The notes: a model not told the origin generated them from the sequence alone. Positions 7,906 through 29,900 are shown, counted from the stretch's first letter. The stretch is DNA of 32,000 nt from Trichodesmium erythraeum IMS101 (GCF_000014265.1 NC_008312.1:5220001-5252000), one strand, 5' to 3'. A program made the numbers and translations.

Positions 7906-9050
7906 TACCAATTTCCTAAAGTCCGACTACACATAATGCTTCAAGAATAAAATCATATCCTGTACAAGAAGCAATATCTTTTTGACTAAATTCAGTTAAT
8001 ATATTTCTCAGGATTCTGCGTCAGAAATCTAAGGAATCGAAAACTCGATTTTTCAAGAATTTTTTCACCTCTTTCCACAGTCTTTCAATGGGATTAACTT
8101 CGGGACAATAAGGAGGTTGAAATAATAAAATGATGTGATCAGGGATAGATAAATCATTCCCTAGATGCCCTCGCCCGTTATCTAGTTGAATAATATGAAT
8201 CTCTTCAGGATATGTTTGAGAAAAAAGCTCTAAAAATCTTTCAAAGCAAGGAGTATCTAGATGACTAAATTCATAAAAAAAGGAATCTCCTGTTTTTGGT
8301 TCTACTAAACCATAAAGCCATAGATATTTAAATAGCCATTGATATAAACCAATGGGCTTAACACCGCAAGCAGTAATGACTTTACCTGTTATAGTTTTTA
8401 ATCCAATTCTAGTCTCGTCTTGACACCAATAGCGAATTGGCAGTTGATTTTCCGAATATTTATTAATTAACTTAATTTTCTCTTCTAGTTGAGATGAGAG
8501 TTTTTTTTAAAGTTTTCTTGAGCTTCTTTATTTTGTTTTATGTGATTTGGACGTGGAACTTTTAATTTACTTTTTAATTTATATCTGACTAATTGATGAA
8601 CTGTTCGATAAGACAGCTCGATGTCAAAACAAGTCGTTAACCACTGTTGAATTTCACCATAGCTTTGGAAACCTTCCGGGTTTTGCAATTCTGCTTCTAA
8701 TTTCTCGATTACATTTGGTGGAATTGAACTTGGCCTCCCTCCTAGATTTTTCTTTGGTTCTAGTAAAAGATTCAGTCCACCTGTACGATATTTCCCTAAC
8801 CATTTTTGTACTGTGACTCGATTGCGTCCTAACATTATCGCAATTTCTTTTACTGTTTCTACTGTTTGAGTTTTCAACCAGTAAATAGTTTGAAGTCTTT
8901 CCTTTTCTTGAGCTGTACTCGCACTTTTTAAAAGTTTTTTGAGAGTTTCTACCGATTCATTTATCTCAATTTTTACTACTCCTGACATGGGGACATTTTC
9001 TATAATAGGTTACTTATAAAAGTGTAGCTTAAGTTTATGAAATTGGTATA
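7906..9050 (-). mobile_element. IS630-family insertion sequence (about 1.14 kb) with imperfect terminal inverted repeats of about 30 bp, inserted at a TA inside the ISAs1 transposase gene
   Basis: The left end 7906-7935 (taccaatttcctaaagtccgactacac..) is the reverse complement, with a few mismatches, of the right end 9021-9048 (..gtgtagcttaagtttatgaaattggta). Both ends abut TA. Removing the element and one TA restores a continuous ISAs1 reading frame, GGAIIITLDA. Confidence 0.8.
7916..8988 (-). pseudogene. IS630-family transposase (HTH plus DDE). It needs a -1 shift in an A8 run and contains one in-frame TGA near the C-terminus
   Basis: The N-terminal ORF 8485..8988 contains HTH motifs (IAIMLGRNRVTVQKWLGKYRTGG, GGRPSSI). 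The downstream frame reads ..IRYWCQDETRIGL..HIIQLDNGRGH..LLFQPPYCPEVNPIERLWKEVKK, which gives the D, D, E triad in IS630 spacing. The two frames overlap at tttaaaaaaaac (minus strand, about 8494-8505). A TGA follows ..NRVFDSLDF (about 8021-8023). Confidence 0.75.
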
Positions 9051-11175: not shown

Positions 11176-11519
11176 ATATAGCTATCTGCTCCTTAAGGCT
11201 TTCAATTAAGATGTTACATCATTTAGATAAATATTTGCTATAATCTATTTTTGCCTGTTGTCTATTAGATGTTAACTATGAAACAGAGTTTTGTAATATT
11301 ATTTACTCAAATTTATATTCTTTGAGGGTGATCATTAAAATACTTAAAAAGTAAATCTAAAAAACGGAATATAAAGTTAGAAGTCGCAGAGAGCAACAAT
11401 ATACAACATTAACCAACAGAAAATATTCTAACAATATGTAAGAATTAAGGTTCTATAGAAAACTCTATCAGTTTTTACTTATAAGAATTTTCAGTCATTA
11501 CTTCCCAAATTATATTCTC

Positions 11520-11701
11520 AAAACCGAAATGGCTATAAGCCTTTATTTTCCTTGTCAGTCATTTTTATAATTCACTTTATGACTAAGTTTGAAATACCTT
11601 AATCCTGACAACAAAACCGAAATGGCTATAAGCCTTTATTTTCCTTGTCAGTCATTTTTATAATTCACTTTATGACTAAGTTTGAAATACCTTAATCCTG
11701 A
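11520..11701. repeat. Tandem direct duplication: two identical copies of about 89 bp separated by 4 nt (period 93 bp)
   Basis: aaaaccgaaatggctataagcctttattttccttgtcagtcatttttataattcactttatgactaagtttgaaataccttaatcctga occurs at 11520-11608 and again at 11613-11701. It lies in a 1.2-kb ORF-free spacer. Confidence 0.9.
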
Positions 11702-12413
11702 AACAATATTGACTAAAATATAGCTAGTCCTAGCAAAGTGAGGACTTTTACTATAGTAACAATTCACCCATAAGTTGTGGGAGATTTACATACTCATAAA
11801 GTTTGAAAAAATCAAAGTTTAACTATTAGCAAACAATTTGAAAGGCTATTTAAAATTTTTAAATTAATGGCATAAGTAATAAAAATTTAGTTTAGTCACT
11901 ATTTTACATTTTAACCGGTACCTTTATTTTTTTATCTGTTATTCCCCAGACATAAATTAAAATATTTCCCCAGAGAATATGACATTTCTATATCATAAAA
12001 ACAGCTAGCTCTTGAGACTTAAAAAGTAGATACCAATTTTTTCATCTTTTATAGAAAAATCATCCTTTTTATTCCACTAAATATTCATCCTTTTTTTTGA
12101 GTTTTTTTGAGCTTTTTTTGATTTAACCTAGTCTTAAGTCAGAAAATTGCAAATTATAATAACTTTAGTCAGACTGATAAATTATATTATATTAAGTTTT
12201 TAAATAAGTTTTTAACCTACCAATACTTTAACTTAAATATATAATGAAAAAAGGTATAAAGCAAAAGTTATAGTTTCAGTTTAAATGGCAAACACTATAA
12301 CAAAAAACATTGATTGATAACACCATATAATCTAACTTGAGTTATCCATAACAAACCTACCCTCATGATTCATTATTTTATGATAATTTATTAATTCCTA
12401 AGTTTTTTTTTGA

Positions 12414-14765: not shown

Positions 14766-15337
14766 TCCTGAGGGACAAAATCTATTGTCAAATTTAGAGA
14801 CACTATTTGGACAATTTCTCTAAAATTATTACCCAACTGTTTTGATAATAATTTTTTAGTTTTCCCTGTTTGCTGCTATTTATATTCTTCTAGTTTGCCA
14901 TTTGTTCCCATTGATTTACTAATCTTAGATTAGATAAAGCATCTCCTTAACTAAGGTAATCTTCTCTTCTTTTAGAAATACTAAATTTCTCAAAAAATTT
15001 TCTACATTTTATTGAGTAAATTAGATACTTTTTTCTTCCTCTGACAAAAAGTTTTTAATTAGCATATATCGCTTTTAAAATTTATCTTTTTCGGCTGAAA
15101 TCATACCGCAAATCAATAGAATAGCTCTTAGCTTTACTCAAAAATATCAACTTTAAACCAACTGGAGCCAAAAGATTGTACATTTTTTCCACAAAAAAAG
15201 CGCGCAATAATATTTAAGTAAATACTTTCATTTTTTTTTCAGCTCACCCTAATTATTTGAGCTCACAAGAAGGGGAAAAACTTAGCTTGTATAGATGTAT
15301 AATTAATCCTGTATGACTATTTATAAGTATCATCATA

Positions 15338-16454
15338 TATAGCAATCCCATATTGGTCGCAACAGATATAATAGTAAGAATAACAGATCTAAGAAAAAGA
15401 CAAAAAATGAATATTATAGATAAACTAAATGATTTTATTAATCAAACAAAAGAGTCTAAAGAAATTAAAAGGGCCTTGGCCGTAAAAATGACCTTGTCAG
15501 GAAAATCCTACCATGAAGTCAAAGAATTATTAAATGTTTCTCACAGTTTTATTAGTGAATGGAAAAACCAAGCATTATTTCATGGTGTAGAAAGTTTAAG
15601 GCTTCAGTATCAAGGGAGACAAGGTTACTTAAAAACGGTCGAAAAAGAGAAAACAATTGAGTGGTTGAGAGCACAAGATTATCTTAGGTTATCAGATTTA
15701 AAAAACTACTTACAGGAGCAATATGATGTGGTTTTTGAGTCTAATCAAAGTTACTATAACTTGTTTAAAGAAGCGGGCATAAGTTGGAAAAAAACTCAAA
15801 AAAAGAATCCTGCTAAAAATGATTAATTAGTAGAAGTTAAAAGAAAAGAAATAGAGGAATTTTTAGCTAAATGGCAACCAGAAATAGAAACTGGAAAGCT
15901 TACAGTGTTTATGATTGATGAATGTCATCTTCTATGGGGAGACATATTAGGTTATGCTTGGGGAAAAACAGATGAAAGAATAGAAATTGCAATTAAAAAT
16001 GAAAAAGAAAGACAGACTTATTATGGAGCTTTAGACTATAAAACCAAGGAATTTCTTGTGCAAGAATATGAGAGTGGAAATACTAAAAATACTATTGAAT
16101 TTATTAAATATTTGCAGAAGCAAAGACCGGGCAACAAATTGGCAATATTTTGGGATGGGGCAACTTACCATAACTCTCAAGAATTTCGAGAATATTTAAT
16201 GACAATTAATCAATACTTATCAGAAGAAGAATTGTTGATAAATTGTACAAGATTTGCTCCCAATGCTCCGGAGCAAAATCCTGTTGAAGATATTTGGTTA
16301 CAAACCAAAAATTTCAGTATTACTTTTTATCATCTTTGCAGTTCTTTTAAAGTAGTTAAGTGGCTATTTAAGTTTTTTGCGGATGGTCAAATATTCAATT
16401 TCCCAAAACTTTTTCAGTATAAAATTTTGCCGCAACCTACTTAGGATTGCTATA
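15338..16454 (+). mobile_element. IS630-family insertion sequence (about 1.1 kb) with terminal inverted repeats tatagcaatcc / ggattgctata
   Basis: The left end 15338-15348 (tatagcaatcc) is the exact reverse complement of the right end 16444-16454 (ggattgctata). The ends begin and end in TA, as expected for TA-targeting IS630/Tc1-mariner elements. Confidence 0.8.
15407..16444 (+). pseudogene. IS630-family transposase interrupted by a single in-frame TAA
   Basis: ORFs 15353..15826 (HTH part, ATG at 15407, MNIIDKLN..) and 15905..16444 (DDE part: MIDECHL.., IFWDGATYHNS, APEQNPVEDIW) are in the same frame. Between them the sequence reads ..PAKND-TAA(15827-15829)-LVEVKRKEIEEFLAKWQPEIETGKLTVFMIDEC with no other defect. 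Confidence 0.8.
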
Positions 16455-16559
16455 GATAATTTCAGTTATCAGCAACAACTGCTGAAGTCATATCCTTAAA
16501 ATACTTATGCCGAAAATTTTTTCATCCCCTTAAAAAAACAGGTTGGAGATATTATTGCT

Positions 16560-19618: not shown

Positions 19619-20689
19619 CAGCAAAATTAGAACCTAAATGACTACTATTAATTTAATTTTTTAGTATTCATAAAATATTTAAAGTAAAGGATATTATAAT
19701 TATTCCATTCTCCTAGATTTTGCCACTGTTAATATTTTTAAGATAAGTTAATATTTTAAGTAAATATTTTCACCAATTCTTTATACTATAACTTAGTAAA
19801 ACTTATTAGCACTAAACCGATCGGCTATACTAAAATACTAATAATCATAAGTTATAAGTTGACTTGAATCTTGACTATTGAGTGCTAACGATACTCCTAG
19901 AATAATATAGATATAACTACTTAGTTTATTGATTAAATGAAATATATAATCATTTCAGTGTAGATTCAAATGAGGGTTTTACACTTGTTAAAATCTCCCA
20001 TATTGTGAAATGACTAATCTTTATTACCTCGCCCTAAATATAGTATATAGAAACCATTTTATATTTGCTTGCCTAACTATCAGCCTTACAGTTTCTTGGT
20101 TTATATTGGCATAAATAGTTACTACTCAGCTATTACAAGTACCCGAAATAGCTCTATTAATTAGCATCTTTAACTAAAAAAGATACCAGATGCTTTCTAT
20201 ACACACAAACAGGATTTGATCAATGGTCAGGTCAAGCTTGATAAGGCTTGATACCCGCGCTACAAAAGCCTGATTGTAAACATTTGTAAAACAAAATACT
20301 CGGAATCTATATGTATGAAAATTAAATCAATAATTTTTCTCAAAGTCCATATCTAAAAAAATTACATCAGATGAGGGAGCAAATGATGTACAGAATAAAT
20401 TGTGAAAACATTGTAGTAAAGACATCTTGTCAGTTATGGGCATACCTTACTGGGAGAAAAACCGCTGCAGTGAAAGATAAACATCTTTTAATAAAATAGG
20501 TAAGACACTTATTAAATAATGTGATACAATACTTTACAATATGACTCTGTTGAAATTTAAGAAATGGCTGACTAATTGACCAAACTTAAAGTTCAATAGA
20601 CAGTTTATGAAGCAGATAAAAAAATAACTTCAAATCACTAAAAAAACATCTAAATTGATTTGTAAATTATCAAAACAAACTATTTTATT

Positions 20690-21135: not shown

Positions 21136-22893
21136 GTGTCTGTTCTCCTGGATGACATTATTAACCATAATAAACAAGCTAACTATACAACTGGAGGCTC
21201 AATGACTAAAGGCTCCAGTAAACCCTATAGTCAGAAAGCTTATCGCTGGAATAGAGAAAGTTATTCTCGCCAGCGCCGTTACATTGATATTTGGAGTTTC
21301 GTTCTCCTTTGGCTAACTTGGCTTTGGGTAGATAAAAAAGATTGGAGTTACCGGGGGGGAGTAACAGAAGAAAAGAAAAATCTCAGACGACGCAAACAAG
21401 CTATTTGGGTCCGAGAGACTATGCTAGAGTTAGGCCCTACCTTTATCAAATTAGGACAGCTATTCTCTACCCGTGCTGATTTATTTCCTTCAGAGTATGT
21501 AGAAGAGCTTTCAAAACTTCAAGATAAAGTCCCTGCTTTTAATTATGAACAAATTGAGACAATTATTGAAGAAGATCTCGGCAAAAAGGTAGAAGAACTA
21601 TACTCAAGTTTTGATCCAGTTCCTTTAGCTGCGGCCAGTTTGGGTCAAGTTCATAGGGCACAACTCCACTCTGGTGAAGATGTAGTCGTCAAAGTACAAA
21701 GACCAGGGCTGAAAAAACTATTCCAAATTGATTTGGCTATTCTCAAAGGAATAGCTCGTTATTTTCAAAGTCACCCCCAATGGGGTAGGGGTCGGGACTG
21801 GTTAGGTATTTATGAAGAATGTTGCCGAATTCTCTGGCTAGAAATAGATTATCTCAATGAAGGTCGCAATGCTGATACTTTTCGTCGGAATTTTCGTAGC
21901 TGTAATTGGGTAAGAGTTCCTAGAGTTTATTGGCGGTATTCAGCGCCACGGGTACTCACATTAGAATATATCCCAGGCATTAAAATTAGTAATTATGAAG
22001 CTCTCGAAGCATCAGGGCAAGATAGAAAGGCTTTGGCTAGGATGGGTGCTGAAGCTTACTTACAGCAACTTTTGAATGATGGTTTTTTCCATGCTGACCC
22101 TCATCCGGGTAATATTGCTGTTAGTCCAGAAGGAGGATTAATTTTCTATGATTTTGGGATGATGGGACAAATTAAGTCTAATATCCGTGAAAAACTTATG
22201 GAAACTCTTTATGGCATTGCTTCTAAAGATGCTGAAAGGGTAATTATATCTCTAACTGATCTAGGAGCATTGAAACCTACTGGAGATATGGGGCCAGTAA
22301 GGCGTTCTATCCAATATATGTTGGATAATTTTATGGATAAGCCATTTGAAGCTCAGTCAATTACTGCTATTAGTGATGATTTGTATGAGGTTGCTTATGA
22401 CCAACCTTTCCGTTTTCCGGCAACTTTTACTTTTGTTATGCGGGCTTTCTCTACTTTGGAGGGGGTTGGTAAGGGTTTAGACCCAGATTTTAGTTTTATG
22501 GAGGTGGCACAGCCTTTTGCCATGCAGCTTATGTCTGATGAAGATTCTCAAAAGACTATTTTTAATGAACTTGGTCGTCAAGCAGCTCAGGTTAGCTCTA
22601 CTGCTTTGGGTTTGCCTGGTCGTATTGAGGATGCAATTGATAAGTTAGAGCAGGGGGATATTAAGGTTCGGGTTCGGGCGGTAGAAACGGATAGGTTGGT
22701 TCGCCGAGTTAGTAATGTACAAATGGGTACTAATTATGCTTTGTTGATTAGTGGTTTTACTTTGTCGGCGACTATTTTATATGTTAATAATCAAGGTGGC
22801 TTGGCTTTGGTTTTAGTTTTGTTGGTTGTGGTGATGGGGTTTGCTTTTATACGACTTTTGAAGCGTATTGATAGACTCGACAAGATGATGTAG
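21136..22893 (+). CDS. ABC1/UbiB/AarF-family atypical kinase with a C-terminal TM anchor
   Basis: Family motifs are GPTFIKLGQLFSTRADLFP, AASLGQVHRA, VVVKVQRPG, FFHADPHPGNI, DFGMMG. The hydrophobic C-terminus is ALLISGFTLSATILY..LALVLVLLVVVMGFAFI. The ORF as given starts at a GTG, and an ATG at 21202 (MTKGSSKPY) is an alternative start. Confidence 0.85.
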   Translation: MSVLLDDIINHNKQANYTTGGSMTKGSSKPYSQKAYRWNRESYSRQRRYIDIWSFVLLWLTWLWVDKKDWSYRGGVTEEKKNLRRRKQAIWVRETMLELGPTFIKLGQLFSTRADLFPSEYVEELSKLQDKVPAFNYEQIETIIEEDLGKKVEELYSSFDPVPLAAASLGQVHRAQLHSGEDVVVKVQRPGLKKLFQIDLAILKGIARYFQSHPQWGRGRDWLGIYEECCRILWLEIDYLNEGRNADTFRRNFRSCNWVRVPRVYWRYSAPRVLTLEYIPGIKISNYEALEASGQDRKALARMGAEAYLQQLLNDGFFHADPHPGNIAVSPEGGLIFYDFGMMGQIKSNIREKLMETLYGIASKDAERVIISLTDLGALKPTGDMGPVRRSIQYMLDNFMDKPFEAQSITAISDDLYEVAYDQPFRFPATFTFVMRAFSTLEGVGKGLDPDFSFMEVAQPFAMQLMSDEDSQKTIFNELGRQAAQVSSTALGLPGRIEDAIDKLEQGDIKVRVRAVETDRLVRRVSNVQMGTNYALLISGFTLSATILYVNNQGGLALVLVLLVVVMGFAFIRLLKRIDRLDKMM

Positions 22894-23049
22894 GACGACT
22901 TCCTTGTTGGTTGGTTTTAAAGCCTTGCCCACCCATCGGGGGACTTCCATGTTTGGACTTTCTATGTTTAAATGAGATTGCTTGAAAAATCCGCCTTGTC
23001 TCATAAATACTTTAGAAAAGAAGAGGTTTGTTGAAACTCATAAAGTTGA

Positions 23050-23285
23050 GTGCAAAACTTGAGAAGCTTTTAGGCTTCGGAGTATTTTGTACCTTGAAGG
23101 CACAAATAAACACTCATAAGAATTTTTTCTAAGTCGCGGTGAAGTATTCCGAGACTTTTAACGGGGGTGAAGGTAAGTCTAAGATACTGCCAAAGTAGCA
23201 GCCTCCTATAAAACATAAACCCGGCTAGAGGTTAAGGCTCAGAAATCTCTGCGCCTTTAGGCCGGGGAGGATGTGAAATTATAGT
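23050..23285 (+). ncRNA. GC-enriched structured non-coding segment, possibly an orphan 5' (domain I) fragment of a group II intron
   Basis: No ORF is present. The segment begins gtgca (consensus GUGYG). Nested helices can be read by eye: ttgtacc/ggcacaa (23087-23105), cccggc (23220-23225) with gccggg (23261-23266), extended by cctc (23202-23205) with gagg (23267-23270), and taaggc/gcctta-like inside. A ctaag receptor-like motif is present. The identification is tentative. Confidence 0.3.
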
Positions 23286-23487
23286 TAAACTCAAAAGTCA
23301 GTTTTATTATAAAAAATACTTTTATTATGTTGAATAAATAGTCATAAATATAATCAAGGATAACTTTATAAATTAACGATATATGAATTTGACGGAAAAG
23401 GTCAGGGAAAATCCTGAGCGTTGCTGATTTTTTGGAGCTTCACAGAATGATTACAGAAAGGAGTTGTGAATGGAAACGAGTGGCGAT

Positions 23488-23532
23488 CGCCTCCCCTAGG
23501 CAAATTCCTAAATTAGTGGGGGTTATTTTTTT
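23488..23532 (+). terminator. Candidate intrinsic terminator closing repeat unit 1
   Basis: gcctcccctag pairs with ttagtgggggg over a stem of about 10 bp (one mismatch, G-U pairs) with a loop gcaaattcctaaa. The stem is followed by ttattttttt. Confidence 0.4.
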
Positions 23533-23695
23533 GCGTTGAATAAATAATCATACACAAAGGCGAGATTACTCTTATATCTATATAGTATCAAAATTTGAGG
23601 GAAAATGAAAGGGAAAAATCCTGAGAGCCGCCGTTTTTTTGGAGCTCCACAGAATAATTAAGAAAAGGAGTTGTGAATGGAAACGAGTGGCGATC

Positions 23696-23739
23696 GCCTC
23701 CCCTAGGCAAATTCCTAAATTAGTGAGGGCTATTTTTTT
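23696..23739 (+). terminator. Candidate intrinsic terminator closing repeat unit 2
   Basis: Same hairpin as unit 1 (3' arm tagtgagggc), followed by tattttttt. Confidence 0.4.
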
Positions 23740-23902
23740 GCGTTGAATAAATAATCATACACAAAGGCAAGATTACCCTTATAGTTATATAGTATCAAAA
23801 TTTGAGGGAAAATGAAAGGGAAAAATCCTGAGAGCCGCCGTTTTTTTGGAGCTCCACAGAATGATTAAGAAAAGGAGTTGTGAATGGAAACGAGTGGCGA
23901 TC

Positions 23903-23946
23903 GCCTCCCCTAGGCAAATTCCTAAATTAGTGGGGGCTATTTTTTT
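23903..23946 (+). terminator. Candidate intrinsic terminator closing repeat unit 3
   Basis: Same hairpin as unit 1 (3' arm tagtgggggc), followed by tattttttt. Confidence 0.4.
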
Positions 23947-24180
23947 GTATTGAATAAATAATCATACACAAAGGCAAGGTTACCCTTATATTTATATAGT
24001 ATCAAAATTTGAGGGAAAATGAAAGGGAAAAATCCTGAGAGCCGCCGTTTTTTTGGAGCTTCACAGAATGATTGAGAAAAGGAGTTGTTGGTTTGGGTGG
24101 AGAACAGTGGAATTATTTTCCTGGCTTAACTAAGCTCCAGGACAAAGGAAAAAAAGGGAAAAGAAAAGAGGGTAAGAGTC

Positions 24181-26059
24181 CTAGGAACGAAAGCCAGAAA
24201 CCACCGGGGAAGACGAGATGACTCGAAAACCCCCATTGTAGAAGAGGCCGCCGGCATAGTCATAGACACGCCTGGCACTCCGGCAATAAATAGAATTGAC
24301 GAGCCAGTTACCGTCGCAGAGCACTCGGCCTCCACCAAAAATAGATTTGAAAAATCCCTTTTCTGGGGTTTCCCAAGGACTACCATTACTAAGAGCACTA
24401 AGTTATCGTGCCAAATATCCTTAAACCATTCCCAGACATTGCCGTGCATATCGTATAAACCAAAAGCATTGGGAGGAAAACTTCCCACATTACAAGTAGA
24501 TTTACTGTTGTAGTTAACTAAACTAGGGATCATACTCGGAGTAAAATAGAAAGAAGTAGTTGTACCAGCACGACAAGCATATTCTCACTGACTCTCTCTG
24601 GTTAGCATATAAGCTTTTCCAATTTTTATAGATAGTTTTTGGTAAAATTCAATTGCATCATGCCATGCCACACATTCGACTGGACGCTTTCCTCCTTAAG
24701 AGTTTTTTCCAAATAGTTTTCTTTCTTTAAAGTGAGAGGAGTTTTTGCCCATAATGACTTGATCTTGTTCCGGAGTAATGCAGTATTTACTCATATAAAA
24801 AGGTTGGAGGACAACCTTGTGTCGCGGACCTTCAATTTTTGTTATTCCCTCTTCATTTTCTGGCGAATCCATGAGAAAACTTTCCCCAGGAATATAAAGC
24901 ATTTCTAATTTAAGTAATATAATTAAATCTTCTATTTTTTGCCTCACACTTCTCTAGATATAGTTAGTAAAATATTTAGAGTTGTCGAAAATAAAAACTT
25001 CAAAAGTAAATAGCTCTTCTTTTTCTAATTATGCTGTTGATACTTGAGATATTTTGGTGTATAAATAGACCGTTGTTTTATTTTATAAGTAGACTGAATT
25101 AGCAACAAAATTTCTCCTACATTTTTCAACCTTTTCTTAGTAGCTCCAACAATCATTTTATCCAAGATTTTTTCAACTTTATCCTTCACCTTTGACTTTC
25201 AATAATCTCCCCATACCCACTCACCTTGAGTCACATCAAATAAATTCAAAGGCTCTACTCAGGCTAATAAATAAATGCAAGTCACACCAAGACTATAAAT
25301 ATCACTAGCAAAAGTTGCTTTTATTACTAATTTTTCTGCGCCACATAGGATGCTGAACAATAATAGTTCCTGTTTGTCCTAAAGCATTCATAGTGGCAAA
25401 TTTAGCTGCACCAAAATCCACTAATACTAATTGATTATCTTTACTTTTCCTAATAATATTCTCGGATTTAATATATCGATAAATTACCTGCTTATAATGA
25501 ATAAATTTGAACACAAGTAATAAACATTTTAACAACTATAAAATTTGACTTACATTAAAATTCCGGAGTATTTTAATTCCTTCTGTAAATTTTTACCATT
25601 GACAAACTATTGTAATAAATACTGTCGATTATTATGATAAAAAAAATTGACTTATATTAAAATATCCGGAGTATTATAATTCCTTCTGAATTTGTAAATT
25701 TTACCGTTGATAAACCATTGTAATAAATACTGTCAATTATTATGAGTAAAATATGCGAAAATTTCTGAAATTTGTGGATGTATACTTAAACTATCTAAAC
25801 ATTCAGCTTCTTGAGCAAATAATTCCGCAGCTTTTGATAACGTTTGATTTCCTTGTACTTGAGTAAAGAATTGCTTAATTACACAAAAGGCTTTGAAAGT
25901 TTATATTCATCTACTACTTGAAAAGTTCTGCCAAAACCTCCTTGCCCGATAATTTTTAGAGAGCGATAACCTTCGACTAAAACTAACTTTTCACCACAAC
26001 TTTGAGATTTTTTTTCCTTGGTTAACTCTTCAACAGTTAAGATTTAAACATTGAGTCAT
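24181..26059 (-). pseudogene. Ser/Thr protein kinase fused to an FGE-sulfatase (SUMF1/C-type-lectin-fold) domain, broken by many frameshifts, stops and an internal duplication
   Basis: Reverse-strand pieces read as follows:
- N-terminus MTQCLNLNC*..CGEKLVLVEGYRSLKIIGQGGFGRTFQVVDE (from 26059).
- Kinase core ..LVLVDFGAAKFA..TGT.. (ORF 25305..25535).
- FGE domain IPGESFLMDSPENEEGITKIEGPRHKVVLQPFYMSKYCITPEQ (ORF 24696..24947), [12 protein letters not shown], and [21 protein letters not shown] (ORF 24126..24533).
After WHDN the conserved frame shifts, giving ..[32 protein letters not shown], with its stop at 24181-24183. The annotated ORF tail down to 24126 is an out-of-frame run-on. Confidence 0.75.
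25545..25745. repeat. Imperfect tandem duplication of about 95-100 bp inside the kinase pseudogene
   Basis: ttgacttacattaaaattccggagtattttaattccttctg..ccattgacaaactattgtaataaatactgtcgattattatga (25545-25637) is repeated with substitutions and small indels at 25647-25745. On the reverse strand both copies encode the same kinase segment (..QYLLQ.F[I/V]NGK..). Confidence 0.8.
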
Positions 26060-29299: not shown

Positions 29300-29900
29300 A
29301 TTAATTTTCAACAAACACAAACTTGAAAATTTTCCGAATTATTCTACTTGGAGAGCTGAAAACCTGAAAAAATTTTCTAGGAGTGAAGAAAAAAGTACTA
29401 CTATTTTATTTTTATCGATTATATAGTTGAGACAAAATGAGGTTTAATTGTGGCTTGCTAGTTAAATATTAAAACCTCAAAATAATAATTCAATAGGTAT
29501 AGATTTAGGAACAGGAATTAAAACTTTTGCTGCTTTGAGAATAGTAAAAAAAACTGATTATCCTGAACCCCAGCCCCTCAAAAAACTGATTAATTAAGTA
29601 GCCTGTTTCAAAGAAGCTGTAAAAGACGCAAAATAAGCAAATCATTCTCGCGGAAAAACTAGAGGTTTTAAAGGATATCAAAAATAGGGATTAAGGGCTA
29701 CTAAATTTCATGACTAACTGAAAACATAAGGATAAATTTTTGGCATAAATTATCTACTCAAACAAAATACGAAAACTAAGTAATAGTTTGAGAAGATTGA
29801 AACATTGATAGAATGATTAAAAAAACTGTATTTGGGGATCAATTTCAACTAGGGGTATAATGAAGTTGATTGATGACTATGTCAAAAACAAATATGGTGG
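29300..29900 (+). pseudogene. TnpB (IS200/IS605-family OrfB, RuvC-like) relic, truncated with multiple stops
   Basis: Translation gives ..SIGIDLGTGIKTFAAL.. (the RuvC-I GIDLG motif, about 29493), ..PLKKLI.. and KFHD*L..NYLLKQNTKTK**FEKIETLIE*LKK (matching ..hKxsxxLxxxxxxIvxEdLnxkgMxKn). There is no open frame and no recognisable Zn-finger/RuvC-III end. Confidence 0.45.

Follow-up and report, generated by a model that had tools for sequence, protein, structure and literature searches.

Within a convergent intergenic gap of Trichodesmium erythraeum IMS101, a 207-bp sequence is repeated head to tail, and this raises the question of whether the repeats are genes for small RNAs or repetitive DNA. 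The window analysed here is a stretch of 32,000 nucleotides (NC_008312.1:5220001-5252000). An initial annotation of the window proposed a multi-copy small RNA (sRNA) array with terminator-capped units, and gave a neutral satellite produced by unequal crossing-over as the alternative. The array is a real feature and the refined description of it given below is new; its biology is probably ordinary. It is best read, with a probability of roughly 0.55, as a minisatellite made of mobile-element-related DNA, a lineage-specific modular repeat residing in a convergent intergenic gap.

The gap is bounded on the left by an ABC1 gene, which ends at 22893 on the plus strand, and the 3' end of a kinase-FGE pseudogene on the minus strand lies just to the right of the array. 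The units and their neighbours are located as follows (positions are counted from the first letter of the window).

21136-22893, plus strand: ABC1/UbiB-family kinase gene, upstream neighbour and synteny anchor, identical to T. erythraeum WP_044136875.1
23330-24088, plus strand: whole array, 3.7 head-to-tail units of 207 bp each
23330-23535, plus strand: unit u1, diverged edge unit
23536-23742, plus strand: unit u2
23743-23949, plus strand: unit u3
23950-24088, plus strand: unit u4, truncated
24126-25535, minus strand: decayed and fragmented Ser/Thr-kinase + FGE-sulfatase (DUF323) gene, downstream and convergent, with Pfam matches in three fragments

The neighbouring DUF6825 protein is ABG52520.1 of T. 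erythraeum IMS101. An origin in Richelia or another heterocystous cyanobacterium was considered and rejected, since protein identity assigns the window to T. erythraeum. Ser/Thr-kinase plus FGE is the domain pair reported for the 12 targets of the diversity-generating retroelement (DGR) of T. erythraeum (PMC4143802).

Much of what the initial annotation said of the layout is borne out. Tandem Repeats Finder reports a period of 207 for 23386-24088 (3.4 copies, 94% matches, score 1229), and a repeat search that counts the diverged u1 gives start-to-start spacings of 206, 207 and 207. TTGAAT forms the first letters of the units (23330, 23536, 23743 and 23950), which places the start of u1 at 23330 and keeps the other three starts. 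Units u2, u3 and u4 are 95-97% identical to one another, whereas u1, described before as diverged, is 79-85% identical to them. The 3' block, which begins GGAGTTGTGAATGGAAACGAGTGG, is the same in u1-u3, and a 24-mer taken from it has 0 chance matches expected. Homology of u4 to the other units breaks off after AAAAGGAGTTGT, as had been stated; u4 has no downstream hairpin or T-run, and the sequence continues toward the 3' end of the convergent pseudogene. The ORF search agrees that the array holds no ORF of 60 or more amino acids, and the only ORFs in it are repeat-generated ones of 20-40 amino acids. The hexamer TCCGGA, also reported as missing, is absent from 23322-24088. In contigs of T. 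erythraeum from metagenomes and MAGs the neighbours are unchanged but 1.7-2.7 units are present, and many contigs end within the array; these lower numbers reflect either copy-number polymorphism or collapse of the repeats during short-read assembly.

The DNA downstream of the ABC1 orthologue was compared between species, using loci from species-representative genomes. The only portion of the unit common to relatives is its 5' ~126 nt, referred to here as module A. Module A consists, in order, of Box1 (TTGAATAAATAATCAT), a variable stretch of 30 nt, a TAnnAT box and then ATCA, an A/G-rich stretch resembling GGGAAAATCC, and an end made up of a T-run, GGAGCT and N-C-A-N-A-G-A-A-T-G-A, the last of which contains a start codon. 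The T. erythraeum unit is module A plus 81 nt, with the following elements.

23330-23456, plus strand: module A of u1 (nhmmer, E-value 1.5e-24 with a profile of the locus copies and 3.9e-8 with a metagenome-derived unit profile)
23459-23532, plus strand: 3' block, imperfect hairpin and T-run of u1, T. erythraeum-specific, with hairpin arms at 23490-23498 and 23514-23522
23536-23665, plus strand: module A of u2, with Box1 at 23536-23551, the -10-like TATAGTAT at 23581-23588, T-run at 23634-23640, GGAGCT at 23641-23646, and ATA instead of a start codon at 23654-23656
23666-23739: equivalent of the 3' block, hairpin and T-run in u2
23743-23872, plus strand: module A of u3, with Box1 at 23743-23758, -10-like box at 23788-23795, T-run at 23841-23847, GGAGCT at 23848-23853, and ATG at 23861-23863
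23873-23946: equivalent of the 3' block, hairpin and T-run in u3
23950-24079, plus strand: module A of u4, with Box1 at 23950-23965, -10-like box at 23995-24002, GGAGCT at 24055-24060, and ATG at 24068-24070

The ATG of u3 opens a 30-codon ORF whose end falls within the TTGAAT of the following unit.

Four relatives (two Trichodesmium, Dapis and Okeania) possess 2-5 tandem copies of module A at the syntenic site, and there too the kinase-FGE neighbour is arranged likewise beside the array. Three copies occur with a period of 328 in Trichodesmium MAG_R04 and three with a period of ~313 in Okeania hirsuta, while Trichodesmium MAG_R02 has three full-length copies plus fragments at irregular spacing and Dapis has two full copies plus half copies. 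Module A is absent at the remaining 77 cyanobacterial ABC1 loci compared. The array thus has the features of a minisatellite, with units arranged head to tail, inner units that are more alike than the edge unit, regular periods of 207, 328 and ~313 in three taxa and irregular spacing in the two others. The initial annotation had cast the 65-nt 3' block and hairpin as the body of an RNA, an assignment that the comparison does not support, as this is the least conserved part of the unit across species. The relatives' counterpart of the 65-nt block is weak and limited to the surroundings of the GCGATCGC (HIP1) octamer, and the G+C-rich hairpin before the T-run has no counterpart in them; an A-run able to pair with the T-run is present there. 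From its sequence, the unit of T. erythraeum appears to have arisen by shortening of a longer ancestral one. The exact T. erythraeum pattern TTGGAGCT...GGAGTTGT was tried as a genome-wide family and had 0 matches in the species-representative genomes; this exact form is private to the array locus, which is assumed to be masked in the collection searched.

Conservation of module A was set against that of four-fold degenerate sites in ABC1, where identity to T. erythraeum is 82% for MAG_R04, 78% for MAG_R02, 77% for Dapis and 66% for Okeania. With identities of 66-82% at such sites, the five taxa are close to one another. Across them, 0.50 of the ABC1 four-fold sites are invariant versus 0.38 of the module columns, and the best 16-nt window is Box1, with 13 of 16 positions invariant (P = 0.01 before correction for 109 windows). 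Because the module is no more conserved than synonymous sites of ABC1, its similarity across species needs no purifying selection, although codon bias may constrain the four-fold sites, which would make this neutral yardstick too strict.

Module A is not restricted to the ABC1 locus. A metagenome scan with a degenerate pattern extending from Box1 to the GAGCT...AAT box found at least 111 contigs, and all 111 of those listed contain full-length module matches (26-88 bits). With the arrays masked, shared flanks divide these contigs into at least 74 groups, which puts module A at at least 74 other sites, so that Okeania-like metagenome DNA contains many dispersed copies at unrelated sites, as is characteristic of MITEs. 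The flanks are Okeania-like: a ChlD fragment has 93% identity to Okeania sp. SIO2D1, and O. hirsuta DNA matches one module-bearing contig at 84-90% identity. Dispersed arrays have 1-3 modules among the matches listed, and the consensus of the dispersed unit is 289 nt long. A profile built from the dispersed copies alone matches the four window units with E-values of 1.8e-17 to 3.9e-8, and since this metagenome-only profile recovers the window units, the homology is reciprocal. Per flank group listed, arrays favour the 3' ends of genes, with ratios of 39:17 (p = 0.005) for a same-strand upstream neighbour and 35:15 (p = 0.007) for an opposite-strand downstream neighbour. Tolerated insertions show a bias of this kind, and the window array has such a setting too. 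A phage origin was considered, and no match was found in viral contigs; nor is there a general link to kinase-FGE (DGR target) genes, which occur at only ~4 of the 111 loci listed. In contig L139, an ORF of 412 amino acids (1152-2387, where the module is on the plus strand) lies 304 nt downstream of the module array and resembles by eye the TnpB/OrfB-type proteins of IS200/IS605 elements; L109, L131 and L176 also have similar ORFs after their arrays.

Many of the leftmost modules in dispersed arrays are preceded by a recurrent arm that begins TATAGAACnnATTTGGTATCTTT and ends ...GAAACTATACTATTTTTAG. Among the matches listed, inverted TATAGAACnnATTTGGTATCTTT 24-mers bracket eight arrays for which both sides are on the contig, and the elements so defined are 570-1150 bp long and contain 1-3 modules. 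The element ends (TA/TAGAAC...GTTCTA/TA) fit a TA duplication, but the duplication is inseparable from the repeat itself. An autonomous parent with these MITE ends was not found. The window does contain an element with the same terminal inverted repeats as those that flank module arrays in the metagenome loci.

20040-20201, no strand assigned: 'empty' MITE of ~160 bp, outside the array and with no module inside, whose ends are TATAGAAACCATTT... and ...AAAGATACCAGATGCTTTCTATA

No terminal inverted repeats occur near 23330-24088, and because the window array is without them, a mobile origin of the window copy can only be inferred. On its sequence the array is filed as a relative of MITE cargo rather than as a MITE itself. 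For the recurrent left flank, group II intron domains 5/6 were considered, but there was no Intron_gpII match at the gathering or E-value level; the flank is actually the left arm of the inverted-repeat element.

Several other repeats and mobile-element remnants were observed in the window. Fragments of IS630-type transposase genes (helix-turn-helix domains, DDE_3) lie at 8485-8988 on the minus strand and 15353-16444 on the plus strand, and the copy at ~15290-16460 has its own TATAG... inverted ends, unlike those of the MITE family. The stretch 23132-23278, close to the left edge of the array, holds CCGGCTAGAGGTTAAGGCTCAGAAATCTCTGCGCCTTTAGGCCGG and is itself a dispersed repeat, with matches in L131, in L189 (twice) and, inverted, in Trichodesmium MAG_R02 (L009 3611-3729). 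A 108-bp tandem repeat of two copies is located at 25540-25751, just upstream of the kinase pseudogene; each copy has TCCGGA (25562 and 25665) followed by GTATTATAAT, which amounts to a DIF-like hexamer beside a -10-like box. At 11519-11706 and 11433-11552 lie a 93-bp repeat, in two copies with 98% identity, and a stretch beside it that is common to metagenome contigs L113 and L151 and so represents another dispersed repeat family. The segment 6903-6983 is shared with the Okeania-like contigs L104, L125, L148 and L151, and 29634-29823 with L125, L131 and L189; at 69-89% identity to the contigs, both look like more dispersed intergenic repeats.

The sRNA array of the initial annotation, in which units would be promoter-RNA-terminator cassettes that make a trans-acting plus-strand RNA and whose copies raise its dosage, is a possible but rather doubtful explanation. 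The cassette-like layout on which it was based is real. Every full unit has a -10-like TATAGT/TAGTAT box, relatives have such a box at the aligned position, and among the dispersed copies the consensus is a perfect TATAAT; five taxa have retained the array at a single site; and highly expressed tandem-repeat ncRNAs have a precedent in T. erythraeum (PMC4143802). No -35 element is found in the units or the aligned copies, however. As a terminator, the hairpin and T7 that close the T. erythraeum units give a mixed picture. The hairpin is indeed present, with a predicted energy of ~-12.6 kcal/mol in u3, but its stem has an internal mismatch, with 9 of the 10 possible pairs, and its loop is 13-15 nt long, a G-to-A change weakens the stem in u2, and a terminator scan did not call it. 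Relatives do not have a terminator-like hairpin at all, as their T-runs are preceded by A/U pairing only. Measured against shuffled sequence, the 81-nt segments have z-scores of +0.45 to +1.3, the hairpins have -0.1 to +0.4, and whole units have -1.1 on either strand; folding is therefore no better than in shuffled controls. The initial annotation had named three results that would refute an sRNA array, and two of these, folding energies no better than those of shuffled controls and homologs that consist only of more of the same tandem repeat, are essentially what was obtained. Covariation in homologs, which had been suggested as a check, is nearly absent: RNAalifold returned no consensus pairs for 13 locus copies, so a conserved RNA structure was rejected, and for 97 dispersed copies it returned short hairpins only, with very few compensatory changes (one example pair is CG in 50 copies, GG in 19 and GC in 4). 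Searches against Rfam 15, proposed with NsiR1, Yfr2/Cyano-1 and others in mind, gave no match at the gathering threshold in the window, none relevant to E = 10 in 22900-24400, and nothing relevant to E = 10 in a dispersed array; the best E-values were above 0.03 and to unrelated families, with none to NsiR1 or Yfr2/Cyano-1. Conservation below that of synonymous sites and a bias toward gene 3' ends that is typical of tolerated insertions likewise weigh against selected RNA genes. Box1 was also considered as a Fur/PerR-like or CRP-like site (TGA-N8-TCA), but the likeness is by eye and the spacing misfits the 7-1-7 model.

The NsiR1 tandem sRNA array (RF02399) is located upstream of hetF in heterocystous cyanobacteria. 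Each of its units has a DIF+ promoter motif (TCCGGA near -35) and yields a discrete transcript of ~60 nt that is induced on nitrogen step-down. The window array resembles it in consisting of intergenic tandem units of ~200 bp, each with a promoter-like box, in a filamentous cyanobacterium, and the T. erythraeum units also have a hairpin and T-run. Unlike NsiR1, the array has no covariance-model match, no TCCGGA, no conserved structure and other neighbouring genes, and its part shared across species is the 5' promoter/leader-like module rather than the terminator-proximal RNA. The NsiR1 model was functional, with scores of 39.7 and 50.2 bits on contig L125. These two tandem matches, at or above the gathering score, are on the minus strand of this Okeania-like metagenome contig (562-621 and 731-790), ~1.2 kb from a module A copy. 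The most abundant RNAs of T. erythraeum come from a tandem array adjacent to Tery_0080 (Pfreundt et al. 2014, PMC4143802). That array is more than 6 kb long in IMS101, with units of 736-973 bp and a transcript of ~260 nt, and its authors report no similarity elsewhere in the genome (PMC4143802). The window array is likewise on the forward strand in T. erythraeum and abuts the 3' end of a reverse-strand gene, but its units are 207 bp rather than 736-973 bp.

The translation signals at the end of module A could be read as a mini-ORF or leader-peptide cassette, in which the T-run, GGAG and ATG would serve to start translation, with either the product or translation itself being functional. In the dispersed copies, AGGAG is located 9 nt from the ATG after a U-run, and together they open the 8-codon ORF MK[MI][FL]V[VI]F[HY]-stop in 57 of the 109 copies listed (as MKMFVVFH*), with an in-frame 16-residue form in 18 of the 109. 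Entropy by codon position in this ORF is 0.68/0.42/0.83, and just 2 of 113 control windows are as periodic; the codon-like substitution pattern of the dispersed mini-ORF is a lead. Copies from a recent burst would nevertheless retain an ORF by descent alone, and the peptide is not conserved at the ABC1 locus, where ORFs from the corresponding start are 4-30 codons long and unrelated between taxa, and where u2, one MAG_R02 copy and one Dapis copy have ATA instead of ATG. The products match no gene on record, and on balance a functional mini-ORF is unlikely. Type I toxins of the Ldr/Ibs type are hydrophobic ORFs of ~19-60 amino acids with an overlapping antisense RNA. ORFs of the window are neither hydrophobic nor conserved, and the dispersed ORF of only 8 codons is too short for a membrane toxin, so a toxin-antitoxin system of this type was not recognised. 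Three further candidate ORFs, the 9-codon METSGDRLP in the 65-nt block and ORFs of 35 amino acids on the plus strand and 40 on the minus strand, were rejected as unconserved and without a gene on record. Least probable of all is that the array is an antisense or cis regulator of the convergent kinase-FGE (DGR-target type) gene through transcription from the last unit into its variable 3' end. The truncated u4, with no hairpin or T-run, does abut that 3' end, the arrangement is kept in relatives, and another T. erythraeum array lies against the 3' end of a reverse-strand gene, part of which it duplicates (PMC4143802); yet such a neighbour is found at only ~4 of the 111 dispersed loci listed, and in T. 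erythraeum the target is a pseudogene. A broader construction would make module A a portable cassette (regulator box, -10, U-rich leader, Shine-Dalgarno and mini-ORF) of a new multi-copy family of dual-function RNA/micropeptide genes, tandem at a single site conserved among Trichodesmium, Dapis and Okeania, spread by a MITE in Okeania, and with the last T. erythraeum copy reading antisense into the kinase-FGE 3' end. The most invariant blocks (Box1, the -10-like box, the T-run with GGAG, and the start codon) are what an expression cassette needs and argue against the minisatellite reading, but the construction as a whole is speculative and improbable.

The neutral satellite formed by unequal crossing-over, offered by the initial annotation as an alternative, fits the data better than its preferred sRNA array, with the amendment that the array is a member of a dispersed family and not junk private to the locus. 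Under the minisatellite reading, the ancestor of Trichodesmium, Dapis and Okeania would already have had tandem module A between the ABC1 gene and the convergent kinase-FGE 3' end. In Okeania-like genomes the module would have spread to dozens of sites, in part carried by a non-autonomous transposon whose terminal inverted repeats are 24 nt long. The shortened unit of T. erythraeum would have been re-amplified recently through unequal crossing-over or slippage, and this would explain why the inner units are nearly identical and the edge unit diverged; continual remodelling by unequal crossing-over would likewise account for the different unit lengths in each taxon. The array would persist because a convergent gap between two gene ends tolerates it. 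Each -10-like box could drive a plus-strand RNA of ~145 nt, predicted to start near 23594 or 23801 and to end at the T-run at 23739 or 23946, and transcription begun near 24008, in the last copy, would extend into the pseudogene in the antisense direction.

The BOX elements of Streptococcus pneumoniae are modular, with the structure boxA-boxB(n)-boxC. A MITE of Porphyromonas gingivalis contains a minisatellite (PMC4596501). The family studied here shares with both a dispersed non-coding element with inverted-repeat ends and variable internal tandem modules at dozens of intergenic sites. It differs from them in that the sequences are unrelated, the modules are long (~290 nt, or 207 in T. erythraeum) with promoter- and RBS-like signals, and the window array has no inverted repeats. 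The family behaves most like modular MITEs that have a variable tandem repeat inside them. Nezha and other IS630-derived MITEs occur in cyanobacteria, and the family resembles these in having ends compatible with a TA duplication and in the presence of IS630-like transposase fragments in the window, but differs in that no autonomous parent has been identified for the array-bracketing ends.

Non-coding DNA makes up about 40% of the Trichodesmium genome; much of this DNA is transcribed, and why this is so is a matter of debate. Trichodesmium genomes are repeat-rich and full of selfish DNA (PMC9950141; PMC4143802). The internal signals of the array may well drive its transcription, which in a repeat-rich genome where abundant RNAs come from another array would be unsurprising and no proof of function. 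The locus illustrates one source of non-coding DNA, through inheritance at a fixed site, turnover by unequal crossing-over, and mobilisation in relatives. For repeat annotation, the family provides a defined sequence model with which to mask or annotate repeats in Trichodesmium and Okeania assemblies, whose contigs often break there. If the promoter- and RBS-like signals are active, the family would give rise to many small transcripts, and possibly micropeptides, that are not selected sRNA genes, and such repeat-derived transcripts, if made, would matter for how counts of 'ncRNA' are read from transcript maps.
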